A stretch of 54,015 nucleotides of DNA from Candidatus Taylorbacteria bacterium RIFCSPHIGHO2_12_FULL_45_16 (lineage in GTDB: Bacteria; Patescibacteriota; Minisyncoccia; Phycocordibacterales; PALSA-1337). The stretch covers positions 1 to 54,015 of the forward strand of contig MHRT01000010.1 in NCBI GenBank assembly GCA_001821055.1. Reading direction: 5' to 3'. Positions 4,499 through 54,015 of this stretch are shown in pieces; position 1 is the stretch's first letter; each line of letters opens with the position of its first letter. Under the pieces are notes generated by a model that did no database searches, had not been told where the DNA came from, and worked only from the letters and a program-made list of their open reading frames with translations. The position numbers were made by a program, and so were the translations under genes.

Positions 4499-7093
4499 TT
4501 ACTTCTTTTTTTCGTTGATAGGAAGTGAAGGCCGTTTTTCTGGAGATGGCGTTACTGGGGGTTCCGCGTCCGCAAATGGAGATTTGCCCGCCTCCAGATT
4601 GTTCAGAATGAAGGCTATTTCTTGATTGTCCGGATTGGTCTTTGCCAATGACCTGAACTGGGTAATCGCCTCGGATACATTGTCGAGACGCGTATACGAG
4701 AGGCCGAGGAAATACTGAGCGTTGGCGTAATCAGGTTGAAGCTGAACAGCCGTCTCAAGTGATTTCGCGGCAACAGCATAGTCTTTATTGTTATATTGCA
4801 ACAGGCCTAGTTGGAAGAACAGAACGGGGTTCTGCGGATTGAGCTGTGTGGCGACTTGGGCGGCGATAATGGCGTCTTTCAGATTGCCTTGGGCGGCAGT
4901 CACTTGTGAAAGCACGAATATGGCATCAAGATAATTATTCTTGATTTGCAAGGCCAGACCAAGGGTTTTTAGGGCATCATCAAGTTTATTTTGGGACGCT
5001 TGCAGTCTTGCCAGATTAAGATACAAAGCTGGATTCAATGAGTTGCGCTTGATTGCTTCAGTGTAGGAATTGACAGCATTATCATACGCTTTGTCCATAC
5101 GCATATTCGTCGCTAATTCCGAGACTCGAGCTTCAGAGACAAAGTTGTAATAATTGGTAGGGTCGTAGGTAATCGCAGCTTGAGAATATTTGATGGTGGA
5201 ATTGATGACCTCAAATACATTGGAGACAATCTCCTGCGAAGTGGAGGCCGACATGCCTGATTGGACAGTCGAGATGATCTTATTGGCTTTCGCCAACCCA
5301 GCTTCCGCACGAGCCTGTAAATACACATCGGATTTGTTCAATGAATACGCGCTAGAAAACGCGGAATCGGCAACATCGGCGTCACCGCCAGCCGTCAGGA
5401 TTTTGACTCCTGAACCAAAATATGTAAGAGCGATATAGTCTTTCACATACAACACTCCCCACACTACGCCGACAATAACTAAAATCACGGTAACAATGGA
5501 GAGGACAGTGCGTGAACGAAGACCGATACGCGGCGCTATAGTGTACGGAGCGACAATGCCATATTTGACTATAACGGCAACGGCAATAGCAGTCACGATA
5601 AAGGTATAGAAAATCATCGCGTGGGACGGAACCGACAGGGCGGACATAACCCACATGAACGCAGAAATGAACACTGAAGAAGTAATCGCGAACCGGGCTT
5701 GAGAATCATTTGGTAATCGACGGAGCGCGCGAACCGACAAAATACTGAAAAAGATCAGGAAAAGTATCCAGGCAATGACGCCGAATATTCCTTGGGTCGC
5801 GACGAATGTGCTCAGCAAACTGAACGCGTAGTTGAATTCGGCATTCCACGCGTATGTCTGGTTGACAATAACCGGCTTATAGGAAATATACGCCTGTCCA
5901 AAATGATTGGGTCCAACTCCAAACACTGGAGCGCCTTTTATAACATCAGCGTCAACATCCAGCGTAAGTTGCCATGGTAGCGTAAGCGCGCTGTATGAGG
6001 CGTTAAATTTTTCAATAACTGGTTTTGCGATTGGCGTACCCCAGAATACAAACACTCCGGCTATGATGAACAATGCTAGAGGCAACCATGCAACGCGTTT
6101 TAAGAAACCAGAAAAACCAGCCGACATTGGTCGTGGACGAGCGATACTGGTAGCTATCGTGAATGCAAGCATTGTCAAGGCGCCAATTGTCCAAACTAAT
6201 AAACTGTTGATAATGAAAGTCCCAAGAAAAGAGACAATCAACACTGCCCAATAAAGTATCTTCGCGCGGCGGGATAGTGGGAGAAAAACAAGTGCGGCCA
6301 AACTGATGATTGCGATAACCATGGCATACGCAGCCAAGTCATACCATGTACCCACGAGCGTATTGGTGACTTCTGACAAAATCCCAAGGGACATAAATGA
6401 TGGTCCAGCAAGAAATCGCGCTCCATGTAATATTGCCAAAATGATAAACGGTATAATCATGCTGACATATATGAGGGAAACTCGTTCAATTTTACGGTAT
6501 ACGACGGTGAACACGACTAAAGCCGCAAGAAACAATATCAATGTAAAGCTTGCCGTCGTGAGTTCAAAACCTTGACCAAAGAATGATTTGCCGATATGTA
6601 CGCTGGTAAATGAAGAAATAACCAGTGAAAGCCCGACAAGAATGCTCGTCCGAATTATGCTTCGTGGCGGAAGAATAATCGAGTGTTCTTTGTATGCCAC
6701 AAGGCCATATAAAATAGCCGTGATAAGAATGCCGAGAGAAATTAATATTGATTTGGTGGCATCAAGTATAATATAAGGCGTCGGCAAAAATGCCAATGGA
6801 GCCAAGAAGACGGTTATTAAAAGAACATAGAAAGCGGCCGATTCTAGTCGCGACACACCATGTTTCGGAGATGTCTTGATTGGCGCCTGCGGCGTGGCTA
6901 TTGCGGTCGGTGGAATTGGCGTTGGCTTTACGGCTTGTTTTTGTTGCATCGTCGGCATAGCTGGCTTCGCTTGCGCGACCAAGACAGACGGCGGTGTTGG
7001 CGATGGATTTGAAGCTGTATTCGTACGAATATTGATAGGAAAAGAATTTTGATTCATGAAAATAAAACTTATGATTAATATGACACTTCCCAT
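4499..7093 (-). CDS. Wzy/O-antigen-ligase-like polytopic membrane protein with C-terminal TPR repeats
   Basis: 864 aa. About 12 hydrophobic segments are followed by about 6 TPR-like repeats (e.g. AYDNAVNSYTEAIKRNSLNPALYLNLARL, DYANAQYFLGLSY). The true start may be an internal Met. Confidence 0.6.
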   Translation of the reverse strand: MGSVILIISFIFMNQNSFPINIRTNTASNPSPTPPSVLVAQAKPAMPTMQQKQAVKPTPIPPTAIATPQAPIKTSPKHGVSRLESAAFYVLLITVFLAPLAFLPTPYIILDATKSILISLGILITAILYGLVAYKEHSIILPPRSIIRTSILVGLSLVISSFTSVHIGKSFFGQGFELTTASFTLILFLAALVVFTVVYRKIERVSLIYVSMIIPFIILAILHGARFLAGPSFMSLGILSEVTNTLVGTWYDLAAYAMVIAIISLAALVFLPLSRRAKILYWAVLIVSFLGTFIINSLLVWTIGALTMLAFTIATSIARPRPMSAGFSGFLKRVAWLPLALFIIAGVFVFWGTPIAKPVIEKFNASYSALTLPWQLTLDVDADVIKGAPVFGVGPNHFGQAYISYKPVIVNQTYAWNAEFNYAFSLLSTFVATQGIFGVIAWILFLIFFSILSVRALRRLPNDSQARFAITSSVFISAFMWVMSALSVPSHAMIFYTFIVTAIAVAVIVKYGIVAPYTIAPRIGLRSRTVLSIVTVILVIVGVVWGVLYVKDYIALTYFGSGVKILTAGGDADVADSAFSSAYSLNKSDVYLQARAEAGLAKANKIISTVQSGMSASTSQEIVSNVFEVINSTIKYSQAAITYDPTNYYNFVSEARVSELATNMRMDKAYDNAVNSYTEAIKRNSLNPALYLNLARLQASQNKLDDALKTLGLALQIKNNYLDAIFVLSQVTAAQGNLKDAIIAAQVATQLNPQNPVLFFQLGLLQYNNKDYAVAAKSLETAVQLQPDYANAQYFLGLSYTRLDNVSEAITQFRSLAKTNPDNQEIAFILNNLEAGKSPFADAEPPVTPSPEKRPSLPINEKKK

Positions 7094-31630: not shown

Positions 31631-33049
31631 GTGTGGGACGATGAACGTATAGAAGCTGGAGAAGCCACCGGTATCTTAGCTTGGCACCCAGACAGGCTCG
31701 CTCGTAACTCGGTTGATGGTGGAAAGATAATCTATTTGGTTGATACAGGCATGATTACTGACTTAAAGTTTCCAACATTTTGGTTTGACGCAACTCCGCA
31801 GGGAAAATTCATGCTTTCGATTGCTTTTGGTCAGAGCAAATACTATGTGGACAATTTATCAGAAAATGTAAAGCGCGGTTTTCGTCAGAAATTGAAAAAT
31901 GGCATCTGGCCGCAGAAGGCTCCGATTGGATATCTGAATGACAAAAAGACAAAACTGATCACTATTGATCCAGAAAAAGCTCCACTCATCAAGAAAGCTT
32001 TCGAGGCTTATGCTACAGGCAACTATACCCTTTCCGGATTACGCAAGGCTATGGGTGAGCTTGGTTTAACCGGGCATAAAGGCAGAGATCTTTCCATTTC
32101 CAACTATCAGTATTTACTCAAAAATCATCTCTATTACGGACTCATATTTTTTCACAGCGAATTCTGGGAAGGTAAACATGAGCCGATTATTACGAAGAAA
32201 CTCTATGATCAAGTTCAGGAGGTCATGACGCGTAAAAGTAAACCACAACATGATGGTGGATTGAAACCATATGTATATCGTGGACTATTCAAGTGCGCCG
32301 AATGTGGCTGTTGTATTACGAACGAGACGAAGAAAGGTCATAACTATTTGCGATGTACAAAACGCAAAGGACCCTGCTCGCAGAAATATGTTCGTGAGGA
32401 AGCTATGACTACATTAATTCAAAAGGAGCTCAAGAAAGTATCACTTTCTGATGCTGTTGCGAATTGGTTAATTGCCGAGGTTGAAAAAGAAAAAGTAGAT
32501 GATAATAAATTATCGGGGATTCAAATTCAGAAAGTGAATGGTGAAATTGCTTCTGTTGATTCCAAACTTGATAAATTGATGACAGCATATCTTGAAAATG
32601 CCTTAACTTTGGAAGAATATCAACAAACCAAGAACAAACTGATTTCTGAAAAGCAGGTTTTAAAGGACAAACTCGCCTCCTTCGGTCGTGTCTCGACCAG
32701 TCGGTTCGAACCAGTCATAAATTTCTTTAACGACTGTAAACAAGCCGCTATTTTGGCAGACAGCACGGATACGACGAAAATTCGCTCATTCTTCCAAAAG
32801 GTCGGTTCGAACCCACTCGTCCGCGACCGCGCCCTCGTTTTTTCGCCCCGTGCGCCCTTTGCATTTGTGACAAAAATCCCAAAAAAATCCAGCAATGAAG
32901 CGGGCGGGGCGGAAGGGGGGTTTCAGGGGGGAATTCCGCCCCGCCCTCCACTTGTGGTTTGCGATGATGCGATTTCGGGCGATTTTGCGCTTTCTGCGAA
33001 ATTGCTGGCCGGATGGGACGCTGTGGGAACCGTTATTTTAGCGAGATAA
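31631..33049 (+). pseudogene. 5'-truncated large serine recombinase (catalytic Ser region missing)
   Basis: Matches the intact recombinase at 41022 from HPDRLARN onward (recombinase domain, zinc ribbon CAECGC...YLRC, coiled coil). It lacks the ~65-aa N terminus with the catalytic Ser. The 3' ~150 nt look like read-through. Confidence 0.7.
32902..32946. repeat. GC-rich 13-bp perfect inverted repeat at the island junction
   Basis: gggcggggcggaa (32902-32914) pairs with ttccgccccgccc (32934-32946). The loop is ggggggtttcaggggggaa. Confidence 0.7.
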
Positions 33050-33305
33050 CCTGAATCCCTTTACTATCGATGTCCTTTTTAGGCCAGAATTTCTCTAGCT
33101 CTTCGATTTTCCATTTACCTACATATCCAACCTCTTTTTCGATTTCCCGACCAGTATAACTCTTTGTTTTCGGATCCCACTCCTTTAGCACTAATGTATC
33201 TCCTTCTTCAATCTCAAAATCATTCAACCGAAGCTCAAAAGTCTTCTTGTTATCGACTATCTGCTGGAAATATTCAGGCCATACTTTCTTCTCAACTTTT
33301 TTCAT
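33033..33305 (-). CDS. ASCH/PUA-like small protein (DUF3850-like)
   Basis: 90 aa. KVWPEYFQQIVDNKKTFELRLNDFEIEEGDTLVLKEW...TGREI fits the DUF3850/ASCH pattern. Confidence 0.6.
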   Translation of the reverse strand: MKKVEKKVWPEYFQQIVDNKKTFELRLNDFEIEEGDTLVLKEWDPKTKSYTGREIEKEVGYVGKWKIEELEKFWPKKDIDSKGIQVISLK

Positions 33306-33316
33306 AGTTTATAAAT

Positions 33317-35398
33317 TTATTTACTTCCATTGTTAATTTTAACAGGAACACCTTTCTTACCATTTGCTAATTTACTATCAAAGAAATCGACAATTACAGG
33401 CTTATCGCAACTAGATCCTTTTCCAACAACAATCGCACGATACCTAGGCAAAATACTCATACTATCTAAATACTTTTGATTTATATATGCACTCATGAAG
33501 TTTTTAGATGTTTCGTCGAAAGACTGTAGAGCAATAATAGTGTGACACTGATAAAGGATCGTTTTTGTCACTAATGCTGTACGCTGAGTAATGATAAGAA
33601 ATCCAATATTATGTTTTCGACATTTTAGAACAACTTGAGATATTCTGCTCACTTTCTTTTGACCAAACCCCTGATCACCAAATGTACTCTCTGGAATAAA
33701 GTCATAGGCCTCCTCCATTGCAATACAGATTTTTTCGGCCTCATTCTTTGTTTGATAAGCTACTACCTTCTCAATAAGATTGGCCGTAATGTCACTCAAA
33801 TTTAATGTGCCTGTACTTTTGTCCTTATCGTCAGTCTGCCAATTTATGGAAATTACATTTTTCGTTGCCTTTGAAAGATCAAAAGTGTTGGAATCCTGCT
33901 CTTCTATAAGTGAAGAATCTATATATGTAGTAAGTGATTGCTTATGTTTCCTATCAACTTCCAGGATTACCACTTTGAAACAACTAGAAGCCATTTTTTC
34001 TAGGATACATGCTGCCATTCTAGATTTTCCCGTACCAGTCTTTCCTATTACGGCTATGTGATGGCTGACACTTTCCTCAAGGTCAATAAAAATCGGGTAC
34101 TGCGAACGTGGTACTGTCCCAACTTTGTAACAATTATTATTAGATATTTTTATCTCTTCTGTAGATGTTTCAATAAACACGGGAGAATTTATGCTAGGCA
34201 CCCAACCAGTATCGGTGAATTTCTGTTTATCACTCTGCCAATTACCGATTTGTTGTGCAGTTATGATCTTTGATCCAATCTTGCTATGTCCATCTACACT
34301 TTCTGAATCAGTCTCAACATTAATTATTTGATATTTCGTAGAAGTCTTGTAAAAACTTACGGCAATTAAATCACCTTCCTTCAGGTCCTTGCGTTCATCA
34401 ACCCCTTCAATCATTTTAACTTTGATAACATCAATATCTGAATTGGTATAAACAAAGCCTATTATATTATCACGATTTTTATAGACCTCTGAAGATTCAA
34501 TTTCTTTAGGTATACCTGAATCTGTACTAAAGACATATACCTGCTTTGCTATGTCAATAGCCCTAGCATTTATGCAATGAAAATGTAAATATTTCTTATT
34601 ATCCGCTTCAAGTTCATATATGAACATTGCGTAAATTAAATCAGCATCTGTGTGTAGATGTCTCACGTCATCAATGACTACAATATCCCCGGATTTTAAG
34701 ACTGGAGATCCTGGTAATTGCTCAACATAAATAACATCTGGGTTTAATCTCTTTACAATTTTACCAATCAATCTCGACTTATTTTTAGCCTTCATTTTTT
34801 CAAGCAATGGAGTAATCAGTTTTCTATCAATAGGCTCAATGAGAATCACCACACCCCAAAAAATAATGAGCAATATAACTGCTATTTGCTCATTATTTAT
34901 CAATGAACTGCTTTCAAGGGATGAGACAAAATAGTTAAAAATTGACAATATAAAAACAATTGAAAACAAAAGTCTTGAACTACCCAAAAAGCCAGATATA
35001 ACATTTAAGGAATAAGCAATTTTTTGTGATAGAACATTTCTGTCTTTCTCTTCGTCAACCAAGACAAAAGACACAAGGGCTATAACAGCCGTTAGTAGTG
35101 AATATGTAATGAGTGGCCAATAGAGGTGAAATTTACTTACATCGTTAAGTGTTAATAAGACGACAAACAGTGTTATTACATTCACTATTACATCTAGTGG
35201 TTTAGTGAAATATTTTTCTGTAACAAAGACACCAAGTATTATCAATAACAAGCCACTTGTGAACCAAATCTCTGAGTCCTTTCCTAGGCCTGTAAAGATC
35301 CTATCTATCAATAAAAATTTGAGAGCAAATAATCCTCCTGCAAATATGATCAAATAAGTGAGATTTTTTAATTTATTGCTCTTCATAAAATTATCCAA
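33317..35398 (-). CDS. Membrane-anchored HerA/FtsK-superfamily (DUF87-like) ATPase
   Basis: About 6 TM segments in the first ~200 aa, then a central domain. Walker A HHIAVIGKTGTGKS, Walker B CIAMEEAYDF, and IGFLIITQRTALVTKTILYQCHTIIALQ. Confidence 0.7.
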   Translation of the reverse strand: MDNFMKSNKLKNLTYLIIFAGGLFALKFLLIDRIFTGLGKDSEIWFTSGLLLIILGVFVTEKYFTKPLDVIVNVITLFVVLLTLNDVSKFHLYWPLITYSLLTAVIALVSFVLVDEEKDRNVLSQKIAYSLNVISGFLGSSRLLFSIVFILSIFNYFVSSLESSSLINNEQIAVILLIIFWGVVILIEPIDRKLITPLLEKMKAKNKSRLIGKIVKRLNPDVIYVEQLPGSPVLKSGDIVVIDDVRHLHTDADLIYAMFIYELEADNKKYLHFHCINARAIDIAKQVYVFSTDSGIPKEIESSEVYKNRDNIIGFVYTNSDIDVIKVKMIEGVDERKDLKEGDLIAVSFYKTSTKYQIINVETDSESVDGHSKIGSKIITAQQIGNWQSDKQKFTDTGWVPSINSPVFIETSTEEIKISNNNCYKVGTVPRSQYPIFIDLEESVSHHIAVIGKTGTGKSRMAACILEKMASSCFKVVILEVDRKHKQSLTTYIDSSLIEEQDSNTFDLSKATKNVISINWQTDDKDKSTGTLNLSDITANLIEKVVAYQTKNEAEKICIAMEEAYDFIPESTFGDQGFGQKKVSRISQVVLKCRKHNIGFLIITQRTALVTKTILYQCHTIIALQSFDETSKNFMSAYINQKYLDSMSILPRYRAIVVGKGSSCDKPVIVDFFDSKLANGKKGVPVKINNGSK

Positions 35399-36065
35399 TC
35401 TTTCTCATTATAAAGAGGTATTTGAATCCTCTTAGATAGAAATTATATTGTCTAGCCCTGCTATGCCAAATATCAGTGTTTGAGGTTTGATTATGTCTTG
35501 TAAGACACACAATATCAATAGGCTCAAAGTGTTTCTCAAGTCTTTGCCACATTAGAAATCCTGTAGCTGTAAACTTCTTTTTTATCCATTGATCGGCAAT
35601 AACCCAACCCATCGCCTTTCCTGGCTTTAGGATTCTCTTAATCTCTGCAGCAGTCTTATCTAATTCATCATAAAACTCTGTTTTCTCGCAGGAGATTTTT
35701 CCGATACACTGTTTATCATCGGAATATTTTATATTGTCTGAATATGGTGAGTCGATAAACACAAAATCTACACTATTCTCCTGCAGAGGAATTTTCCTAG
35801 AATCATTCTTAATGATATCTGGTCTAACTATATTCAAATCGTAGCCAATAACTTTTCTTTTCAATTCTTTGGCCACATCAATCGTGGTGCCACTTCCACA
35901 CATTGGATCTACAACTAGATCGCCCTCTTTGGTGTATCGTTGCAACAAATTCCATATGACAAAAGCCGGCGTAACGCCGTTATATTTGTTATTTCCGTGG
36001 GGTGTATCTCCATAATTTTGTTTTGGAAAATCCCACAATGTTGTGGATTCAATCTGTGATAACAT
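35391..36065 (-). CDS. N4/N6-type DNA methyltransferase (small)
   Basis: AdoMet motif DLVVDPMCGSGTT is followed by the catalytic-type motif FIDSPY. Its stop overlaps the HerA-like start by 8 nt. Confidence 0.75.
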   Translation of the reverse strand: MLSQIESTTLWDFPKQNYGDTPHGNNKYNGVTPAFVIWNLLQRYTKEGDLVVDPMCGSGTTIDVAKELKRKVIGYDLNIVRPDIIKNDSRKIPLQENSVDFVFIDSPYSDNIKYSDDKQCIGKISCEKTEFYDELDKTAAEIKRILKPGKAMGWVIADQWIKKKFTATGFLMWQRLEKHFEPIDIVCLTRHNQTSNTDIWHSRARQYNFYLRGFKYLFIMRKIG

Positions 36066-36068
36066 AAC

Positions 36069-36737
36069 TTATTTTAGTAATTTCTTCAGATCGTCAATGA
36101 ACTTATCGAACATTTTAACCTTATCACTTTCCTCAATATTGGTTTCACTCAAAACATAACTGCCATCTGTATCAACTTCAACGATAGCTCTGCCTTTCTT
36201 TGTCGGCTTCTTCATTGTAAGTGTCCCATCTTCGTCTGGTGTTACGAAATATACCTTGATATGCTTTGTTGCTTTATCAGATGCCAATTTCATTTTCCAG
36301 TAACCTGTTTGAGCAATCCTCTCTCGTAGAGTGACTTTACTGGATAAAACAGCAACAACTTTACTCGTCTTTGGATCGAATATAATCAGGTCAACATCTG
36401 GTAAATGCAAGCCAAACTCACCATAATCAACAGTAAGATTTCTTTTAAGTTCGCTTAATTCTTTGGACAAATTTGAGCCATTTGTTCGTTCAAGAGTATT
36501 TCCATTTACTACCTGCAAACTAAGAGCGTGAACTTCATCTGTAATAATGTACTCAATCAATTTTTCCAGATTCTTTCCCTTGAATGCTCGCCAAGATTGC
36601 TCATGGTCATCACCTGTAAAATCTTTCCCGTGTTGTTCTTTGGCCTCGCGCAAAACATTCGATATGTGCCGATACGCCTCTACTCCATATTGGCTCTTTT
36701 TCGTATCATAAATTTTGATCAGATCCTTGATTGTCAT
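36069..36737 (-). CDS. Probable type II restriction endonuclease (PD-(D/E)XK-like)
   Basis: LPDVDLIIFD ... AVLSSKVTLRERIAQ resembles a PD...(S/E)xK core. It sits between two methyltransferases with 3- and 4-nt gaps. Confidence 0.5.
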   Translation of the reverse strand: MTIKDLIKIYDTKKSQYGVEAYRHISNVLREAKEQHGKDFTGDDHEQSWRAFKGKNLEKLIEYIITDEVHALSLQVVNGNTLERTNGSNLSKELSELKRNLTVDYGEFGLHLPDVDLIIFDPKTSKVVAVLSSKVTLRERIAQTGYWKMKLASDKATKHIKVYFVTPDEDGTLTMKKPTKKGRAIVEVDTDGSYVLSETNIEESDKVKMFDKFIDDLKKLLK

Positions 36738-36741
36738 TGTT

Positions 36742-38013
36742 TTATTTTTCCATTACTAGTATATATTCGGTTGGATAAGCCGAAACTTTATTCTTATCAG
36801 TTATGCTTGCAAACTTACCTGTCTTTTTATCTCTAACAGATGGCAAATTCTTTGACGGTATTTCTCTTTTTATAATATCGGCAACTTTTAGTCCTAGGTT
36901 TTGTAATTGTTCAACAAAAACTTCTGCATTGAGTATTTTTACACCCTGCAAACTGGTATTCCCGACAACAATACACGTTTTCCCTCCTTTTTTCAACATT
37001 CGTTTCATTTCAGTAAATACCTGATTCATCTCACTGAAATATGTTGAAACTTCCTCCGCCGTCTTTCGATCTATAACCAATAATTCTTTTCTAATATTCT
37101 CTGCAATTGAGCTATTCAATGTCAGATTTTTCTTGCTGTGATATGAGGTGCCAATAAATCGCTTTCGAAAATCACTTATATCCTTCGTATATTCTAACCA
37201 CAAGGCAGTCAACTGATGTAAATCAGCATATTCGTACGAAGTTACATATGGCGGCGAAGTAACAATCAAATTTACACTGTTATCCCTTGTTGGAATCGTC
37301 CTTGCGTCAGTACAGACAACTTTACTTGGCACCTTCAGATATTTCCTTTCAGATAACATTTCAAACAATCTCTCATTGCCGCGCAACATCATCTTTATTT
37401 GCTTCAAAAATGTTTTAACCGGATCTGATGGCTTTTTCTCAAAATCTCTCGTTGGTTTATTACTTTTTTGTAGCCATATCGAACAATTTTTCAATATATT
37501 AGAAAATCCGCAGAAGAAAAAATCTTGAACATCTTGATCTTTAATTCTTGAGATTTCAGCAAATATAAACGCTAACTTTCTCTTTTCTTCGGGCTTAAAC
37601 CAGTAGTCAATTCTCTCATGTTCCGGAGCTTTTACTTTTGTCTTTTCATTATAAGCCTCTAATCTAATTTTGATATTTTCAAACTCTTTTTCAATCTTTG
37701 CTGGATTGATCGGGGTAATCTTGGCTTTCGTTATTAAAACGGCAACAGGGTTGATATCAACCGCAACTGATGATCTTCCCATAACCTTAGATTCGACGAG
37801 GGTCGTACCACAACCACCAAAAGGGTCAACAACCAAATCTCCCAATTTTGTATATCTTTCTACCAGACGAGAAACAACTTGTGGAATAAACTTTGCGGGA
37901 TAACGATGATAGCCATGAGTAATATACGCAGTGTCTTTGCGTGTCTTATCAGAGAAAGACCATGACGGATCAATCTTAGTTTTATCAAAATGTGAAGTAA
38001 TATTATTGGTCAT
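36742..38013 (-). CDS. N4/N6-type DNA methyltransferase (SPPY motif)
   Basis: HRYPAKFIP...DLVVDPFGGCGTT...DINP, then about 190 aa later NLIVTSPPY. Confidence 0.8.
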   Translation of the reverse strand: MTNNITSHFDKTKIDPSWSFSDKTRKDTAYITHGYHRYPAKFIPQVVSRLVERYTKLGDLVVDPFGGCGTTLVESKVMGRSSVAVDINPVAVLITKAKITPINPAKIEKEFENIKIRLEAYNEKTKVKAPEHERIDYWFKPEEKRKLAFIFAEISRIKDQDVQDFFFCGFSNILKNCSIWLQKSNKPTRDFEKKPSDPVKTFLKQIKMMLRGNERLFEMLSERKYLKVPSKVVCTDARTIPTRDNSVNLIVTSPPYVTSYEYADLHQLTALWLEYTKDISDFRKRFIGTSYHSKKNLTLNSSIAENIRKELLVIDRKTAEEVSTYFSEMNQVFTEMKRMLKKGGKTCIVVGNTSLQGVKILNAEVFVEQLQNLGLKVADIIKREIPSKNLPSVRDKKTGKFASITDKNKVSAYPTEYILVMEK

Positions 38014-38022
38014 CGTGTTTCG

Positions 38023-38031
38023 ATTATATCA
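38023..38031 (-). promoter_or_regulatory. Candidate extended -10 (TGATATAAT) for the RM operon
   Basis: The reverse complement of 38023-38031 reads tgatataat and ends 9 nt before the MTase ATG, which implies a very short leader. Confidence 0.35.
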
Positions 38032-38056
38032 TTTCTTTAGCAAACAAGGGTAATCC

Positions 38057-38062
38057 TATAAT
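38057..38062 (+). promoter_or_regulatory. Candidate -10 box (TATAAT) facing the structured element
   Basis: Perfect tataat 19 nt upstream of the first helix strand at 38082. No convincing -35 box. Confidence 0.3.
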
Positions 38063-38081
38063 TTTCGCCACAGATATTATT

Positions 38082-38388
38082 CGCCTCCCGTTCTACCGAC
38101 TTTGGAGGGTAGGTGGTGTGCGAGACGCTTGGCAGATAAGGGCGCGTTGACCTCCGCCCGTCACCACAGAATCTATTCGCGACTAACCCGCACCGGTATG
38201 TCGAGAGCGGCCGACTGTCTGTGCGTTACAGACTGTCGGGTAAGCGGAGACATACGGGTGTGGGTGTAAGTCGCGCCACATACTCCATTAGGGCGGAGGT
38301 GTATGCGCCCGTACGCTCTCCTACCATGCGCTCAAGTACAAGCGGCCGCGCACGACCTGCCCGTAAAAGGCGGTTGGAGCGGGAGGCG
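38082..38388 (+). ncRNA. Unclassified ~307-nt GC-rich nested-helix element (candidate structured RNA, or single-strand origin of the RCR element)
   Basis: Hand-folded. A closing helix at 38082-38090/38380-38388 encloses a series of nested long-range helices (listed in the findings). G-U pairs occur only in the plus sense. No ORF. Confidence 0.55.
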
Positions 38389-38392
38389 CCTC

Positions 38393-39466
38393 TTACCACT
38401 TTTTACGCTTTATCTTTACCTTCCCCACTGCCGGAAGCAATTGAGTGGCGAATTGCGCGATAGGATCAGTATTCATAAAATCAAGCACCTGTAGTGTGGC
38501 GGCCTGAATGTCTTCAGGGCTACCTTTCATAGCATTGATTACGCCTCTAAGGATTTCAAATAGTTTAGACAATGAATCGACATCCAGCCAGTTCATAACT
38601 TCCTGGAAATTTGATCCTTTAAAAGCTCTTACGGCTTCACTGATTTCAAGCTCGGTAATCTCATCATATCCATTTGAAATAATCACTCCCTGCTCTTTTA
38701 GATTGTTCAGATAATTCGGAAACCTTCTATCAAAATACTTCATGATGTACCAGCCCCATCGCTCAAATTCTATTTTCAAGATTTTGCCATCATTTGATAT
38801 GTAAATTTTCTTCGAAATAAGTGCCAATCCTCTTCCAAGATATTTGGCATAATTCGGATCTGACAGTGTTTTCAGATAACTCAAGAGTACAGCGAACAAA
38901 TGTTGTGGCAAAATCTCTTTCTGCTTGGCGAGAAACGCATCTTCAAACGTTTTTATATCCTCTTTTGAAATCTTACCTCCACCTTTGAATTTACCAGTTT
39001 CATAATATTCATCCTCGGCTTTAACAGACTTTATATTCTTCAAGTCCTCAGCCATAGCTCGTATCGTTGTGTCCAAAACTTCCTGCTTCCCCTCGATATC
39101 TGGATCAGTAAGTAGATCAATAAGATATTTCCTCATCAACTCATCGCTAATTTTGCCGGCATCTTTCTGTTCTAGTCTGAATTTCTGAACATAATAGGTA
39201 AAATTCTTCTCCAGATTTTCAGCTTTGATCTGCTTCTCGCCGATATCAGCTTTGCAATGCTCAGCACATCGGTAATAGCCATCTGACAGCTCCAATCCAT
39301 GCCCTGATTTCTCATACACAAGACTGCCTTTCTTGAAGAATGGTAGGGGTTCAATTTTAATCGGGTTGTTAATAGTTTTCTCCTTCATTTTGATGAAAAA
39401 TCCGCACACAAAATCCTTTATTTGAGCCATCCGCGATCTATGCCTGACTGATTCCGCGAAACTCAC
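38393..39466 (-). CDS. Hypothetical protein (orphan)
   Basis: 357-aa helical, charged protein. Only a weak local resemblance (GYYRCAEHCK...) to the zinc-ribbon region of the neighbouring recombinases. The start is uncertain, with internal Met at residues 13 and 27. Confidence 0.5.
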   Translation of the reverse strand: MSFAESVRHRSRMAQIKDFVCGFFIKMKEKTINNPIKIEPLPFFKKGSLVYEKSGHGLELSDGYYRCAEHCKADIGEKQIKAENLEKNFTYYVQKFRLEQKDAGKISDELMRKYLIDLLTDPDIEGKQEVLDTTIRAMAEDLKNIKSVKAEDEYYETGKFKGGGKISKEDIKTFEDAFLAKQKEILPQHLFAVLLSYLKTLSDPNYAKYLGRGLALISKKIYISNDGKILKIEFERWGWYIMKYFDRRFPNYLNNLKEQGVIISNGYDEITELEISEAVRAFKGSNFQEVMNWLDVDSLSKLFEILRGVINAMKGSPEDIQAATLQVLDFMNTDPIAQFATQLLPAVGKVKIKRKKW

Positions 39467-45697: not shown

Positions 45698-47674
45698 CTA
45701 CTCGTCTTCCTCTACCATCCCCGCTGTGGAGATTTCCTCATCAATGATTTTCTCCCTTTCTTCTTTATTCTCCTCATCCTTCATATTCTTTTTATTCAAC
45801 TCATTCTTCTCATTCATTTTTCCCCTCCCCTTTGCCGCTTTCATAAACTCCGTGAACAATGGATGTGGCTGGAGTGGCCGTGCCAAAAATTCAGGATGGA
45901 ATTGCGTGCCTAGGAAGAATGGGTGTGTGGGTCTACCCCCAGAAAACGAAGACGATTCTGTTCGCTTCGCTTTCGAGTCGTCTTTCTCGAACTTCGCAGA
46001 AAATCTTGGCAATTCGGCGATTTCCATCAGCTTTCCGTCAGGTGATTTTCCGGAAAATACCAAGCCGGCCTTCTCCAATCGCTCGACATATTTCGGATTG
46101 ACCTCATAGCGATGACGATGTCGCTCTTCGATCAAGGTCGTCAGTTTCGGTAGCTTCTTCCCGGCAAAATATGAGTAAGCTTCTTGAGCAATAGATCCTT
46201 TCATCAGTCTGGCCAGATAAACTCCGAGACGCATTGAACCGCCATAATTACCTCCGGCAATCTTCTTTTTCTGATCAGGCATGACATCTATGACTGGGTG
46301 CGGCGACTTTGGATCTATCTCCGTCGTGTGCGCGTCCTTCAGGTCCACGATATTGCGCGCGTATTCAATAATCATGAGTTGCATGCCATAACATAATCCG
46401 AAGTATGGTATCTGATTCTCGCGAGCATAACGAATAACATTCAATTTACCTTCAATGCCCGATTCCCCAAATCCGCCTGGGACGATGATGCCATCCATCT
46501 CATCCAATTTTTTATAAAAAAGGAGGTCGGACCTTGAGGTCGAATCTTGATTCCCCTCAAAATCTCTTGAATTCACGGTATGTATAACCGGCTTCACACC
46601 CACAGCATATCCGGAAAATTTGATCGCCTCCAGCACCGATAAATACGAGTCAGTCAGCACGAAATCTCCGGTATTGAAATATTTACCGACAATGGCAATA
46701 TTCAGGGTTTTGCGTTCATGATTCTTGATGCCACGAGCCATCTTTCTCCAATCCGCGAGCGAAATAATCGGATGGGTCGATAGATGACGGGCAGTCTGTT
46801 TATCGACATGCAAGACTTCCAGAAGAATCTCCGTCAATTTGTCATGATCAAAATTTATTGGCACATCATAGATACTCTGGATATCAGGTGCTGAAATAAC
46901 ACGCTTAGACAAAATGTTACAAGCCGTGGCAATCTTTTCCTTACGTCGCTCGTCAAGCGACACTTCGGCGCGAGCGATGACGATGTCAGTCGTCACGCCA
47001 TATGAAGCCAGTTGGTGTACGGCATTCTGCGTCGGCCGAGTCTTCATCTCGCCCAAAGTCCCAGGGGTTGGCAAATACGAAACCATGATAAATGCTACAT
47101 CCTGTGGATGACGAATTTTGAGCACGCGGGCGGCTTCAATAAACATGATGTTCTGATAATCCCCGACTGTGCCGCCAATCTCTATAATTGAGACATCTGA
47201 CTTATTGACTCGCGCGGAGTGTTCAAAACGATGAACTATTTCATCGCGGATATGCGGAATCGCTTCGACGCATTTGCCGCCATAGCCAAGCGCCCGTTCT
47301 TTCTCTATGACATGTTTATAAACCATACCGCTGGTAATATAGTCGTCAGCGGTCAAATCGCGATTCAAAAATCGCTCGTAATTTCCCATGTCTTGATCCG
47401 TCTCCATGCCGGAATTGAGCACAAAGACCTCGCCGTGTTCAGTTGGATTCATTGTGCCCGCGTCCACATTCAGATATGGATCAACTTTGACCAAATTGAC
47501 TTTGAAGCCTTTGGTGGCAAGAAGGGTGCCGATGGAAGAAGTAGCAACACCCTTCCCCACACCCGACATGACACCGCCGATGACAAAGATATATTTGTGG
47601 TTCAAATTGACCTTGCGCGGCTTGGAAACCGTACTTCTTACAGCAATGGCTCTCTTCCCAGGCTTCCTTTTCAT
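45698..47674 (-). CDS. pyrG: CTP synthase with N- and C-terminal extensions
   Basis: GGVMSGVGKGVATSSIG, GATase GLCYGMQL and HRHRYEVN. At 658 aa it includes an insertion before FLGTQFHPEF and an acidic/Lys-rich tail. Confidence 0.9.
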   Translation of the reverse strand: MKRKPGKRAIAVRSTVSKPRKVNLNHKYIFVIGGVMSGVGKGVATSSIGTLLATKGFKVNLVKVDPYLNVDAGTMNPTEHGEVFVLNSGMETDQDMGNYERFLNRDLTADDYITSGMVYKHVIEKERALGYGGKCVEAIPHIRDEIVHRFEHSARVNKSDVSIIEIGGTVGDYQNIMFIEAARVLKIRHPQDVAFIMVSYLPTPGTLGEMKTRPTQNAVHQLASYGVTTDIVIARAEVSLDERRKEKIATACNILSKRVISAPDIQSIYDVPINFDHDKLTEILLEVLHVDKQTARHLSTHPIISLADWRKMARGIKNHERKTLNIAIVGKYFNTGDFVLTDSYLSVLEAIKFSGYAVGVKPVIHTVNSRDFEGNQDSTSRSDLLFYKKLDEMDGIIVPGGFGESGIEGKLNVIRYARENQIPYFGLCYGMQLMIIEYARNIVDLKDAHTTEIDPKSPHPVIDVMPDQKKKIAGGNYGGSMRLGVYLARLMKGSIAQEAYSYFAGKKLPKLTTLIEERHRHRYEVNPKYVERLEKAGLVFSGKSPDGKLMEIAELPRFSAKFEKDDSKAKRTESSSFSGGRPTHPFFLGTQFHPEFLARPLQPHPLFTEFMKAAKGRGKMNEKNELNKKNMKDEENKEEREKIIDEEISTAGMVEEDE

Positions 47675-52868: not shown

Positions 52869-53124
52869 TGGAGCCGATGTCCGGGATTGAACCGGAGACC
52901 TCGCCATTCGTTTACACCTCTCCTTGCGGGAGGACTAGACTGTATCTTTCTCCATCATTCAATGGAGACCCTTGTCAGTCGTTCGGGCGCAAATAATATC
53001 GCGCCACGGTCTTATCCCTTAAGGACTTTAACCGTTATTCGGGATTCACATATGCGTTACCGCAGATGTGGGCAGGGTCTTACGACCTACCAATGGCGTG
53101 CTCTACCAACTGAGCTACATCGGC
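52869..53124 (-). tRNA. tRNA-Thr (anticodon GGU) interrupted by a 180-nt intron after U36; CCA encoded
   Basis: Exon 1 (53124-53089) is GCCGATGTAGCTCAGTTGGTAGAGCACGCCATTGGT. Exon 2 (52908-52869) is AATGGCGAGGTCTCCGGTTCAATCCCGGACATCGGCTCCA. Joined, they give a perfect 76-nt cloverleaf. Confidence 0.8.
52909..53088 (-). other. Group-I-like intron in the tRNA-Thr(GGU) anticodon loop
   Basis: The 5' exon ends in U paired to G in a P1-like helix, and the intron ends in G. Hand-folded helices occur in the order P1, P2, P4, P6, P7, P8, P7', P9, with GNRA (GUAA) loops on P1 and P2. Confidence 0.55.
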
Positions 53125-53965: not shown

Positions 53966-53984
53966 CCTTTCATACTCAAATCTG

Positions 53985-54015
53985 TGCCGACGCCTGGACT
54001 CGAACCAGGGACCTT
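53985..54015 (-). tRNA. Partial tRNA (3' part only, cut by the window end)
   Basis: The reverse complement gives ...AAGGTC-CCTGG-TTCGAGT-CCAGG-CGTCGGC-A. The anticodon lies outside the window. Confidence 0.6.

Follow-up and report, generated by a model that had tools for sequence, protein, structure and literature searches.

The tRNA group I introns of bacteria have been mapped by Williams (bioRxiv 10.1101/2020.01.27.920355), who located 5292 of them in 21 tRNA/site settings. The accompanying seed alignment includes Rba53.Thr.5Ug, as well as Thr.3Ug and Thr.2Ug, and also represents the IC3 intron of Azoarcus sp. BH72 tRNA-Ile(CAU) (~205 nt; Aol6.Ile2.5Ug), which is inserted at site 36/37 and carries GACU/AGUC in P7. 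Lui et al. 2021 (PMC8172020) mention group I introns in CPR tRNAs, and the tRNAscan-SE 2.0 paper describes group I introns of this kind as a cause of 'missing' tRNAs. When the literature was searched for peer-reviewed work surveying the tRNA introns of CPR bacteria, or for a stated minimum size of a group I intron, only the Williams preprint and the remark in PMC8172020 came up.

Here we describe a tRNA-Thr(GGU) gene of Candidatus Taylorbacteria that is interrupted at the same site as the Azoarcus gene, between U36 and A37. It lies in a stretch of 54,015 nt (contig MHRT01000010.1, hereafter the window). The insert is, in all likelihood, a compact Azoarcus-like (IC3-like) group I intron of the self-splicing type. 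It is one of a large family of tRNA introns in CPR bacteria, hosted mainly by tRNA-Thr(GGU) at the U36/A37 site. An initial annotation of the locus was not aware of tRNA-Thr as a described host, but the Williams alignment has three Thr entries.

Results

ARAGORN in its default mode without introns, together with Rfam, identified four tRNAs in the window (Gly, Gln, Thr-CGU and Asp) and no tRNA at 52869-53124. When intron detection was enabled, ARAGORN called a split tRNA-Thr(GGU) gene at 53124-52869 of the minus strand with an insert of 180 nt at 53088-52909 (i(37,180)), in agreement with the initial annotation, which had proposed the two halves of a perfect tRNA, separated by 180 nt between U36 and A37. 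The 5' exon comprises the acceptor and D arms, the 5' anticodon stem CGCCA, the loop bases UU and the anticodon GGU, of which U36 is the last base; the 3' exon comprises A37 and A38, the 3' anticodon stem UGGCG, the variable loop, the T arm, the acceptor strand and an encoded CCA. The spliced product of 76 nt forms a perfect cloverleaf by ARAGORN, with its CCA encoded, and the intron contains no ORF. The features of the locus are collected in Table 1.

Table 1. Features of the interrupted tRNA-Thr(GGU) gene; positions in the last column are tRNA positions for the exons and intron numbering otherwise.
Feature	Window coordinates	Strand	Details
5' exon of tRNA-Thr(GGU)	53089..53124	(-)	positions 1-36; ARAGORN -i
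Group I intron (in all likelihood)	52909..53088	(-)	180 nt; A1 = 53088, terminal G180 = 52909; ARAGORN -i, fold, covariation, R1
3' exon of tRNA-Thr(GGU)	52869..52908	(-)	ARAGORN -i
P1	53071..53091	(-)	exon G34 G35 U36 + intron 1-5 / intron 10-18 (internal guide sequence); minimum-energy fold
P2	53047..53070	(-)	19-28/33-42, one C-U mismatch, GUAA tetraloop 29-32
P3 5' strand	53041..53043	(-)	C46-C48, pairs with G118-G120
P4-P5 domain	53006..53035	(-)	P4 54-59/78-83, J4/5 AAA 60-62, P5 64-67/71-74, J5/4 UAA
P6 hairpin	52986..53005	(-)	84-90/97-103, loop UAUUAU; RNAalifold and minimum-energy fold
P7 5' strand	52976..52982	(-)	A107, bulged C108, G109 A110 C111 U112 G113
P3 3' strand	52969..52971	(-)	G118-G120; same bases in P3 by R1 alignment
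P8 hairpin	52949..52968	(-)	121-128/133-140, loop GAAU
J8/7 and P7 3' strand	52937..52948	(-)	AAGAUA 141-146; C147 A148 G149 U150 C151 U152
P9 hairpin	52917..52933	(-)	156-159/169-172 and 160-161/166-167, A168 bulged, GCAA tetraloop

At the insertion point U36/A37 the 5' exon ends in U and the intron in G, and U36 forms a U-G wobble with G16 at the 5' splice site, all as had been recognized by eye; exon G34 and G35 pair with C18 and C17, respectively. The U-G pair is kept at the splice site in 42 of 43 aligned sequences. The terminal G is found in 39 of 42 Thr(GGU) homologues when the boundaries are taken from ARAGORN with no requirement for G yet imposed, and the remaining three boundaries are ARAGORN miscalls. 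In relatives hosted by Tyr, Asp and Asn tRNAs the exon ends in CUGU and the guide sequence reads GCAG, compared with GCC in hosts whose exon ends in GGU. Such a switch of the guide together with the host exon is the behavior expected of a group I internal guide sequence.

Folding of GGU plus the intron gave a minimum energy of -70.2 kcal/mol, compared with -46.5 +/- 4.1 kcal/mol for dinucleotide shuffles (z = -5.85), and none of 200 shuffles was as stable. The single-sequence minimum-energy fold shows P1, P2, P4, P5, P6, P7, P8 and P9. The window intron was then aligned with 42 other tRNA-Thr(GGU) introns by plain MAFFT, fitted to no structure (alignment A1), and the RNAalifold consensus of these 43 introns recovered the group I helices independently. 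Helices P1, P2, P4, P6, P7 and P8, originally drawn by hand, recur in both predictions, with some corrections to their extents: P4 has 6 bp, P6 has 7 bp and P8 reaches from 121-128 to 133-140 (Table 1). The hand-drawn P7 is real as well, and had overlooked an additional pair, A107-U152, beyond the bulged C108 (G-C instead in L094). A P9 hairpin is present where one had been proposed, although the pairing 156-160/166-171 was off-register and is replaced by that in Table 1.

Pairing in A1 was counted over the whole structure, P3 and P7 being included as a pseudoknot. The pattern used to collect the sequences had prescribed P4, part of P6 and J8/7-P7, and invariance of A1 at these places carries no information. 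Overall, 94.9% of cells are paired, a value that falls to 30-48% when the partners are slid by 1-3 columns; compensatory changes occur in 25 of the 44 pairs, and the covariation score of 0.434 compares with a maximum of 0.118 for slid partners, with none of 500 shuffles reaching the observed values. Covariation is heavy in distal P1, P2, P5, P8 and P9, whereas no variation is seen in P4, at the base of P6 or in most of P7, parts of these helices having been prescribed by the pattern. P1, which includes one bulged C and a GUAA loop, has A/G-U in 42/43 sequences of A1, and the following two pairs covary between GC and AU (15 and 13 double changes). Compensatory changes were found in all eight counted pairs of P2, whose loop L2 is GNAA throughout A1 (G and last A invariant, third A at least 90% conserved). 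P5, closed by a minimal loop, covaries in 4/4 pairs, P8 in 4/4 counted pairs (19-26 double changes each) and P9 in 3/4 pairs, and the three basal pairs of P6 are conserved.

P3, which together with P7 makes up the core pseudoknot, had been described as weak, with 3 bp in the hand fold. This is confirmed: C46-C48 pair with G118-G120, 99.2% of the cells are paired, and all three pairs covary, with CG to UA double changes in 5, 3 and 2 sequences. A fourth pair, U45-U121, was rejected in favor of the covarying P8 pair U121-A140. Intron positions 10-15 (GACCCU, in the 3' strand of P1; 53074-53079) are perfectly complementary to 117-122 (AGGGUC; 52967-52972, both on the minus strand), the latter running from A117 across the 3' strand of P3 to the second base of P8. 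This complementarity is possibly an alternative pairing, or a coincidence of C/G runs; as an alternative pairing it was set aside because the bases are already engaged in covarying P1 and P3/P8.

Within P7, the GACU/AGUC strands are the same as in Azoarcus and other seeds, and G109-C151 corresponds to the pair that binds guanosine in the consensus G[A]GACU / AGUCC. J8/7-P7, likened at the outset to IC3 tRNA introns, fits the AAGAUAUAGUC consensus of RF00028 and the Williams seeds. More broadly, AAAGAUACAGUC, the G109-C151 pair beside the bulged C108 and the AAA of J4/5 align to the consensus in RF00028, in the model R1 described below, and in the Azoarcus and CPR seeds.

Rfam at the gathering threshold gave no intron match in the whole window. 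On the window intron, RF00028 (Intron_gpI) produced a match that spans the full length but is weak, at 12.2 bits (gathering score 50; E 0.7-2.1), and in which J8/7-P7 (AAGAUACAGUCUAG) and P9 were the best-aligned parts. According to the Williams preprint, none of the RF00028 seeds is bacterial, so that the score below gathering reflects the coverage of the model; the weak match alone is no evidence for group I identity. Intron_gpI (Rfam 15) likewise found none of 20 homologous loci at the gathering score, and the initial proposal to use the Rfam group I model as a refuting test was therefore misleading.

For an independent comparison, 22 published group I introns of bacterial tRNAs served to build a covariance model (R1). 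They were taken from the Williams seed alignment of tRNA and tmRNA introns, leaving out the two tmRNA introns, the two seeds closest to the window intron and the window sequence itself, and keeping well-occupied columns. Seed gaps were padded with N, the alignment was trimmed and the calibration shortened, and the E-values of R1 are accordingly rough. N padding served to keep the curated columns because re-alignment of the trimmed seeds by MAFFT matched the published alignment to only 71%; adding the window intron onto the published seed alignment by MAFFT --add was also tried and rejected, as it came out misaligned. With filters off, R1 matched 52918-53087(-) over model positions 1-179 with a modest 16.9 bits (E = 8.2e-4 for the whole window; rough), the next best match in the window having 9.1 bits (E = 0.2); with default filters R1 gave no match in the window. 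The alignment assigns P2, P3 (CCC/GGG), P4, P5, P6, P8 and P9 as in the hand fold. R1 scores Thr(GGU) relatives at 11-30 bits and three other introns retrieved by the core pattern of the genome scan below, L008, L029 and L028, at 62-70 bits (E 1e-17 to 1e-20); ARAGORN calls the hosts of L029 and L028 as Thr(UGU) and gives no host for L008. Since the window intron shares core sequence with these three, it is linked to introns that score unambiguously as group I.

Metagenomes were scanned for the predicted ligated sequence, 48 nt spanning the junction, and uninterrupted alleles with the exact junction (GGT followed directly by AA) were found on 37 metagenome contigs. L148 and L145 are syntenic relatives of the window: 944 nt of upstream flank are 79% identical at the nucleotide level and the gene order is the same (tRNA-Met, LAGLIDADG ORF, tRNA-Asp, tRNA-Thr(GGU), tRNA-Thr(CGU)). 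The intron is precisely missing from both. The uninterrupted tRNA-Thr(GGU) of L148 is identical to the spliced tRNA of the window at 74/76 positions, including 36/36 of the 5' exon. Nine listed genome loci also carry tRNA-Thr(GGU) genes without an intron. With uninterrupted genes in close relatives, the intron is optional. The reading of the insert as a group I-like intron, put forward in the initial annotation, is thus backed by the fold, the covariation, the independent model R1 and an intron-less syntenic allele.

A free-standing ORF of 234 aa (53965-53261, minus strand; Pfam LAGLIDADG_3, 1.4e-13) sits between tRNA-Met and tRNA-Asp, its final ~10 nt overlapping the 5' end of tRNA-Asp. The protein is 82% identical in L148/L145, and homologues (32-82% aa identity) that end at a tRNA gene occur in at least 11 genome loci and in 7 metagenome loci, adjoining intron-bearing and intron-less tRNA genes alike. 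The product could be a free-standing homing endonuclease or a maturase. The end of the window (53983-54015, minus strand) falls inside a tRNA gene, and its last 32 nt equal the 3' part of the L148 tRNA-Met(CAU) gene (6135-6209).

The region otherwise holds ordinary bacterial genes (prfB, ftsE, ftsX and pyrG), and a neighboring histidine kinase has a counterpart with 100% identity in Candidatus Taylorbacteria RIFCSPHIGHO2_02_FULL. No phage record matched the region by BLAST. The pyrG (CTP synthase) ORF at 45698-47674 (minus strand) encodes 658 aa, compared with ~530 aa in family models, and its match to the GATase domain is broken into two segments, suggesting that about 100 aa have been inserted. 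Positions 33001-39000 have a G+C content of 0.35-0.39 against 0.43-0.48 elsewhere in the window, with a strongly negative GC skew, and may represent horizontally acquired DNA.

Species-representative genomes were scanned with the pattern ATAACGGT...ACCGTGG...AGATAYAGTC, composed of three blocks common to the window intron and the two nearest published seeds. An earlier, looser core pattern applied to viral contigs had given two matches, both chance occurrences within a phage coding region, and the pattern was tightened to three blocks for this reason. The scan returned at least 120 loci, nearly all labeled as CPR/Patescibacteria MAGs. Among the 121 matches listed, 110 fall within split tRNA genes called by ARAGORN, and 75 are tRNA-Thr(GGU) genes split at U36/A37 after correction of the host calls.

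This correction concerned the ARAGORN hosts Arg(GCG), most His(GUG) and single Pro, Phe and Leu calls, all of which are really tRNA-Thr(GGU) with a misplaced intron boundary. With introns enabled, ARAGORN misnames ~30 tRNA-Thr(GGU) genes (L022, L030, L033, L040, L043 and others), which happens when the intron starts with G, as the boundary is then set two bases early. Where the host is called 'Thr(UGU)' or 'Ser(UGA)', the U-G wobble falls at +2 of the called splice site, and host and site may therefore be ambiguous there as well. An apparent 126-nt 'intron' in L025 was discarded as an artefact of the boundary regex.

The 75 listed Thr(GGU) introns range in length from 158 to 230 nt, with a median of 192. 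Identity between the window intron and the other 74 is 62-87% (median 73%); the window intron is compact because P5, P6 and P8 carry minimal loops and P9 is unextended. The initial annotation had stressed that 180 nt is less than the ~205 nt of the Azoarcus intron; this is correct, yet unexceptional, as 63 of the 75 listed introns are shorter than the latter and 12 have 180 nt or less (three of 176 nt and one of 158 nt). The intron of 158 nt (L036:5922-6082, plus strand) has intact exons and P1-P8, the P9 hairpin being absent (CUAGCCAAAAGCG up to the 3' splice site), and is a candidate for the natural minimum of this ribozyme type.

We define here a CPR tRNA-Thr(GGU) intron lineage, to which the window intron conforms in its U36/A37 site, UGCC guide, CCCGAACGACUGACAAGGG core block and 3-bp P3. 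The CCCGAACGACUGACAAGGG block is (near-)invariant in A1 although it lies outside the search pattern, and J6/7 reads CGA against a GUA consensus, within a flanking CCCGAACGACUG block that is almost invariant in A1. The 3-bp P3, the altered J6/7 and the invisibility to Rfam at the gathering score are properties of the whole lineage and not specific to the window.

CPR-type introns were also seen in MAGs labeled Gammaproteobacteria (L031, L036, L044, L046, L060, L065, L109), Bdellovibrio/Bdellovibrionales (L024, L086, L090) and Pedobacter (L009). Most of these carriers with non-CPR labels are 'binchicken' or co-assembly bins, and the labels may reflect mis-binning, mislabeling or a genuinely wider host range.

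Discussion

The exon/intron boundaries, the fold, its covariation, the homology to known group I introns and the presence or absence of the insert were determined directly; by analogy with characterized group I introns, catalysis and splicing in vivo would be expected, and the window intron is very probably splicing-competent. Autonomous catalytic competence is not guaranteed, given a P3 of 3 bp and a J6/7 of CGA that departs from the GUA consensus. In the mechanism that we propose, the 5' exon end GGU would pair with the guide G16 C17 C18 in P1, so that the U36-G16 wobble would come to lie at the cleavage site, and the P3-P7 pseudoknot core would form from P4-P6, P3-P8 and J8/7, braced by L2 (GUAA) and L9 (GCAA). 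The core would bind exogenous guanosine at G109-C151 of P7, and this guanosine would attack after U36. The terminal G180 would then take the guanosine-binding site, and the free 3'-OH of U36 would attack after G180, so that U36 and A37 would be ligated and a tRNA-Thr(GGU) of mature length released. In crystal structures of the Azoarcus-type arrangement, loops L2 and L9 dock on P8 and P5; the GNAA of L2 and the GCAA of L9 fit this arrangement.

The insert might instead derive from a group I intron that no longer splices by itself. A protein, for instance a LAGLIDADG maturase of the kind that the free-standing ORF two genes upstream might encode, would then be needed to stabilize a core that is weak because P3 has 3 bp and the peripheral elements are minimal. 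LAGLIDADG proteins serve as group I maturases in organelles, and the location of the LAGLIDADG_3 ORF (53965-53261) in the same tRNA cluster, with homologues adjoining intron-bearing tRNA genes in at least 11 other loci, would agree with such a role, as would the 3-bp P3 across the whole Thr(GGU) lineage and the low scores from general group I models. However, the ORF is equally present in the intron-less syntenic L148 and L145, and most of the intron-bearing loci examined are without one. The fold is also very stable unaided (z = -5.85), and it has the two GNRA loops, L2 and L9, that typify self-sufficient introns of the Azoarcus type, with L2 conserved. We therefore regard dependence on a cofactor as improbable, and retain a self-splicing-type intron as the preferred reading.

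A dead insertion, in which a decaying element sits in a tRNA-Thr(GGU) pseudogene and the tRNA is supplied by another copy, is more improbable still. A second tRNA-Thr(GGU) gene could lie outside the 54-kb window, but the exons are intact and 74/76 identical to the uninterrupted orthologue, the core is strongly constrained with helices kept by compensatory changes across 43 genomes, and the same arrangement recurs in 75 species-level genomes among the matches listed. Almost no weight attaches to a protein-spliced tRNA intron of the archaeal/eukaryotic bulge-helix-bulge type, which the position in the anticodon loop beside the canonical 37/38 site might bring to mind, or to a chance hand-fold of unrelated sequence. 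The site is 36/37 and not 37/38, the host is bacterial, and the insert has a group I core sequence, a covarying pseudoknot, U-1 and a terminal G; the more than 100 homologues, together with the shuffle controls, exclude a chance fold. Both are effectively refuted by the RNAalifold consensus, the R1 alignment and the covariation.

For group I introns in general, nothing that is known changes with a self-splicing-type intron at this locus, as the tRNA-Thr host and the site were already catalogued in the 2020 preprint. More tentatively, the CPR tRNA-Thr(GGU) introns could constitute a distinct, naturally miniaturized and experimentally uncharacterized branch of the Azoarcus type, splicing unaided or reliant on LAGLIDADG proteins as trans-acting maturase or mobility factor, a suggestion that we consider doubtful but worth stating. 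The traits that point to it are a median length of 192 nt, reaching down to 158 nt without P9 among the introns listed, the conserved 3-bp P3 and the altered J6/7. Unaided self-splicing, if true, would make such an intron smaller than any characterized self-splicing group I intron known to us. Natural variants of a minimal Azoarcus-type core (176-180 nt, one of 158 nt, with 3-bp P3) could help studies of ribozyme structure and folding.

For annotation, the locus is an example of a real tRNA gene missed by standard tools (default ARAGORN and the Rfam tRNA model), and a small CPR genome whose tRNA-Thr(GGU) went missing in this way would seem to have a gap in decoding. The Intron_gpI model of Rfam has a blind spot here, an abundant CPR intron family remaining under its gathering score (20 loci tested).

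Among known systems, the tRNA-Leu(UAA) and tRNA-fMet introns of cyanobacteria and plastids occupy other sites (Leu.3Ug between 34 and 35, and fMet.2Ug) and are longer, about 220-250 nt in the seeds; Phase I of the preprint's search, which was based on Rfam, found them, whereas Rfam misses the window lineage at the gathering score. The Azoarcus intron, the one of the two for which self-splicing has been shown, differs from the window intron in its tRNA-Ile host, its 6-bp P3 and its longer P5, P6 and P8, the window intron being 25 nt shorter. The two agree in the helix order P1-P2-P3-P4-P5-P6-P7-P3'-P8-P7'-P9, in GNRA loops on P2 and P9 and in having no ORF. The architecture of the window intron is IC3-like, with P2 but no P2.1, no P5abc, no P7.1/7.2, a simple P9 and GNRA loops on P2 and P9; it departs from all 26 preprint seeds, which have a P3 of ~6 bp and a J6/7 of GUAGA type, in its 3-bp P3 (CCC/GGG) and its CGA.

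The CPR-type seeds Mba143.Tyr.4Ug and Pgr210.Thr.2Ug and the loci L008/L028/L029 share with the window intron GAUAACGGU, ACCGUGG, GACU(A/G) and AAAGAUA(U/C)AGUC, and they have the same P1-P9 layout without P2.1 or P7.1/7.2. They differ from it in hosts, sites and guides (CUGU at the exon end, GCAG in the guide) and, unlike the window intron, have a 6-bp P3, GUAGA in J6/7 and AGUCCA after P7. The Rba53.Thr.5Ug seed is larger (~257 nt against 180 nt), with a 6-bp P3, a long P8 insertion and extended P9/P9a/P9b where the window intron has a 3-bp P3 and a simple P9, and its core is of the classical type (P4 UCGGGG/UCCCGA, GUAGAGACC), compared with a P4 of ACGGUU/GACCGU in the window. Rba53.Thr.5Ug and the window intron nevertheless share the host tRNA, the anticodon GGU, the site 36/37 (position 5 of the anticodon loop), U-1, the terminal G and the P1 core ggUA...UGcc.
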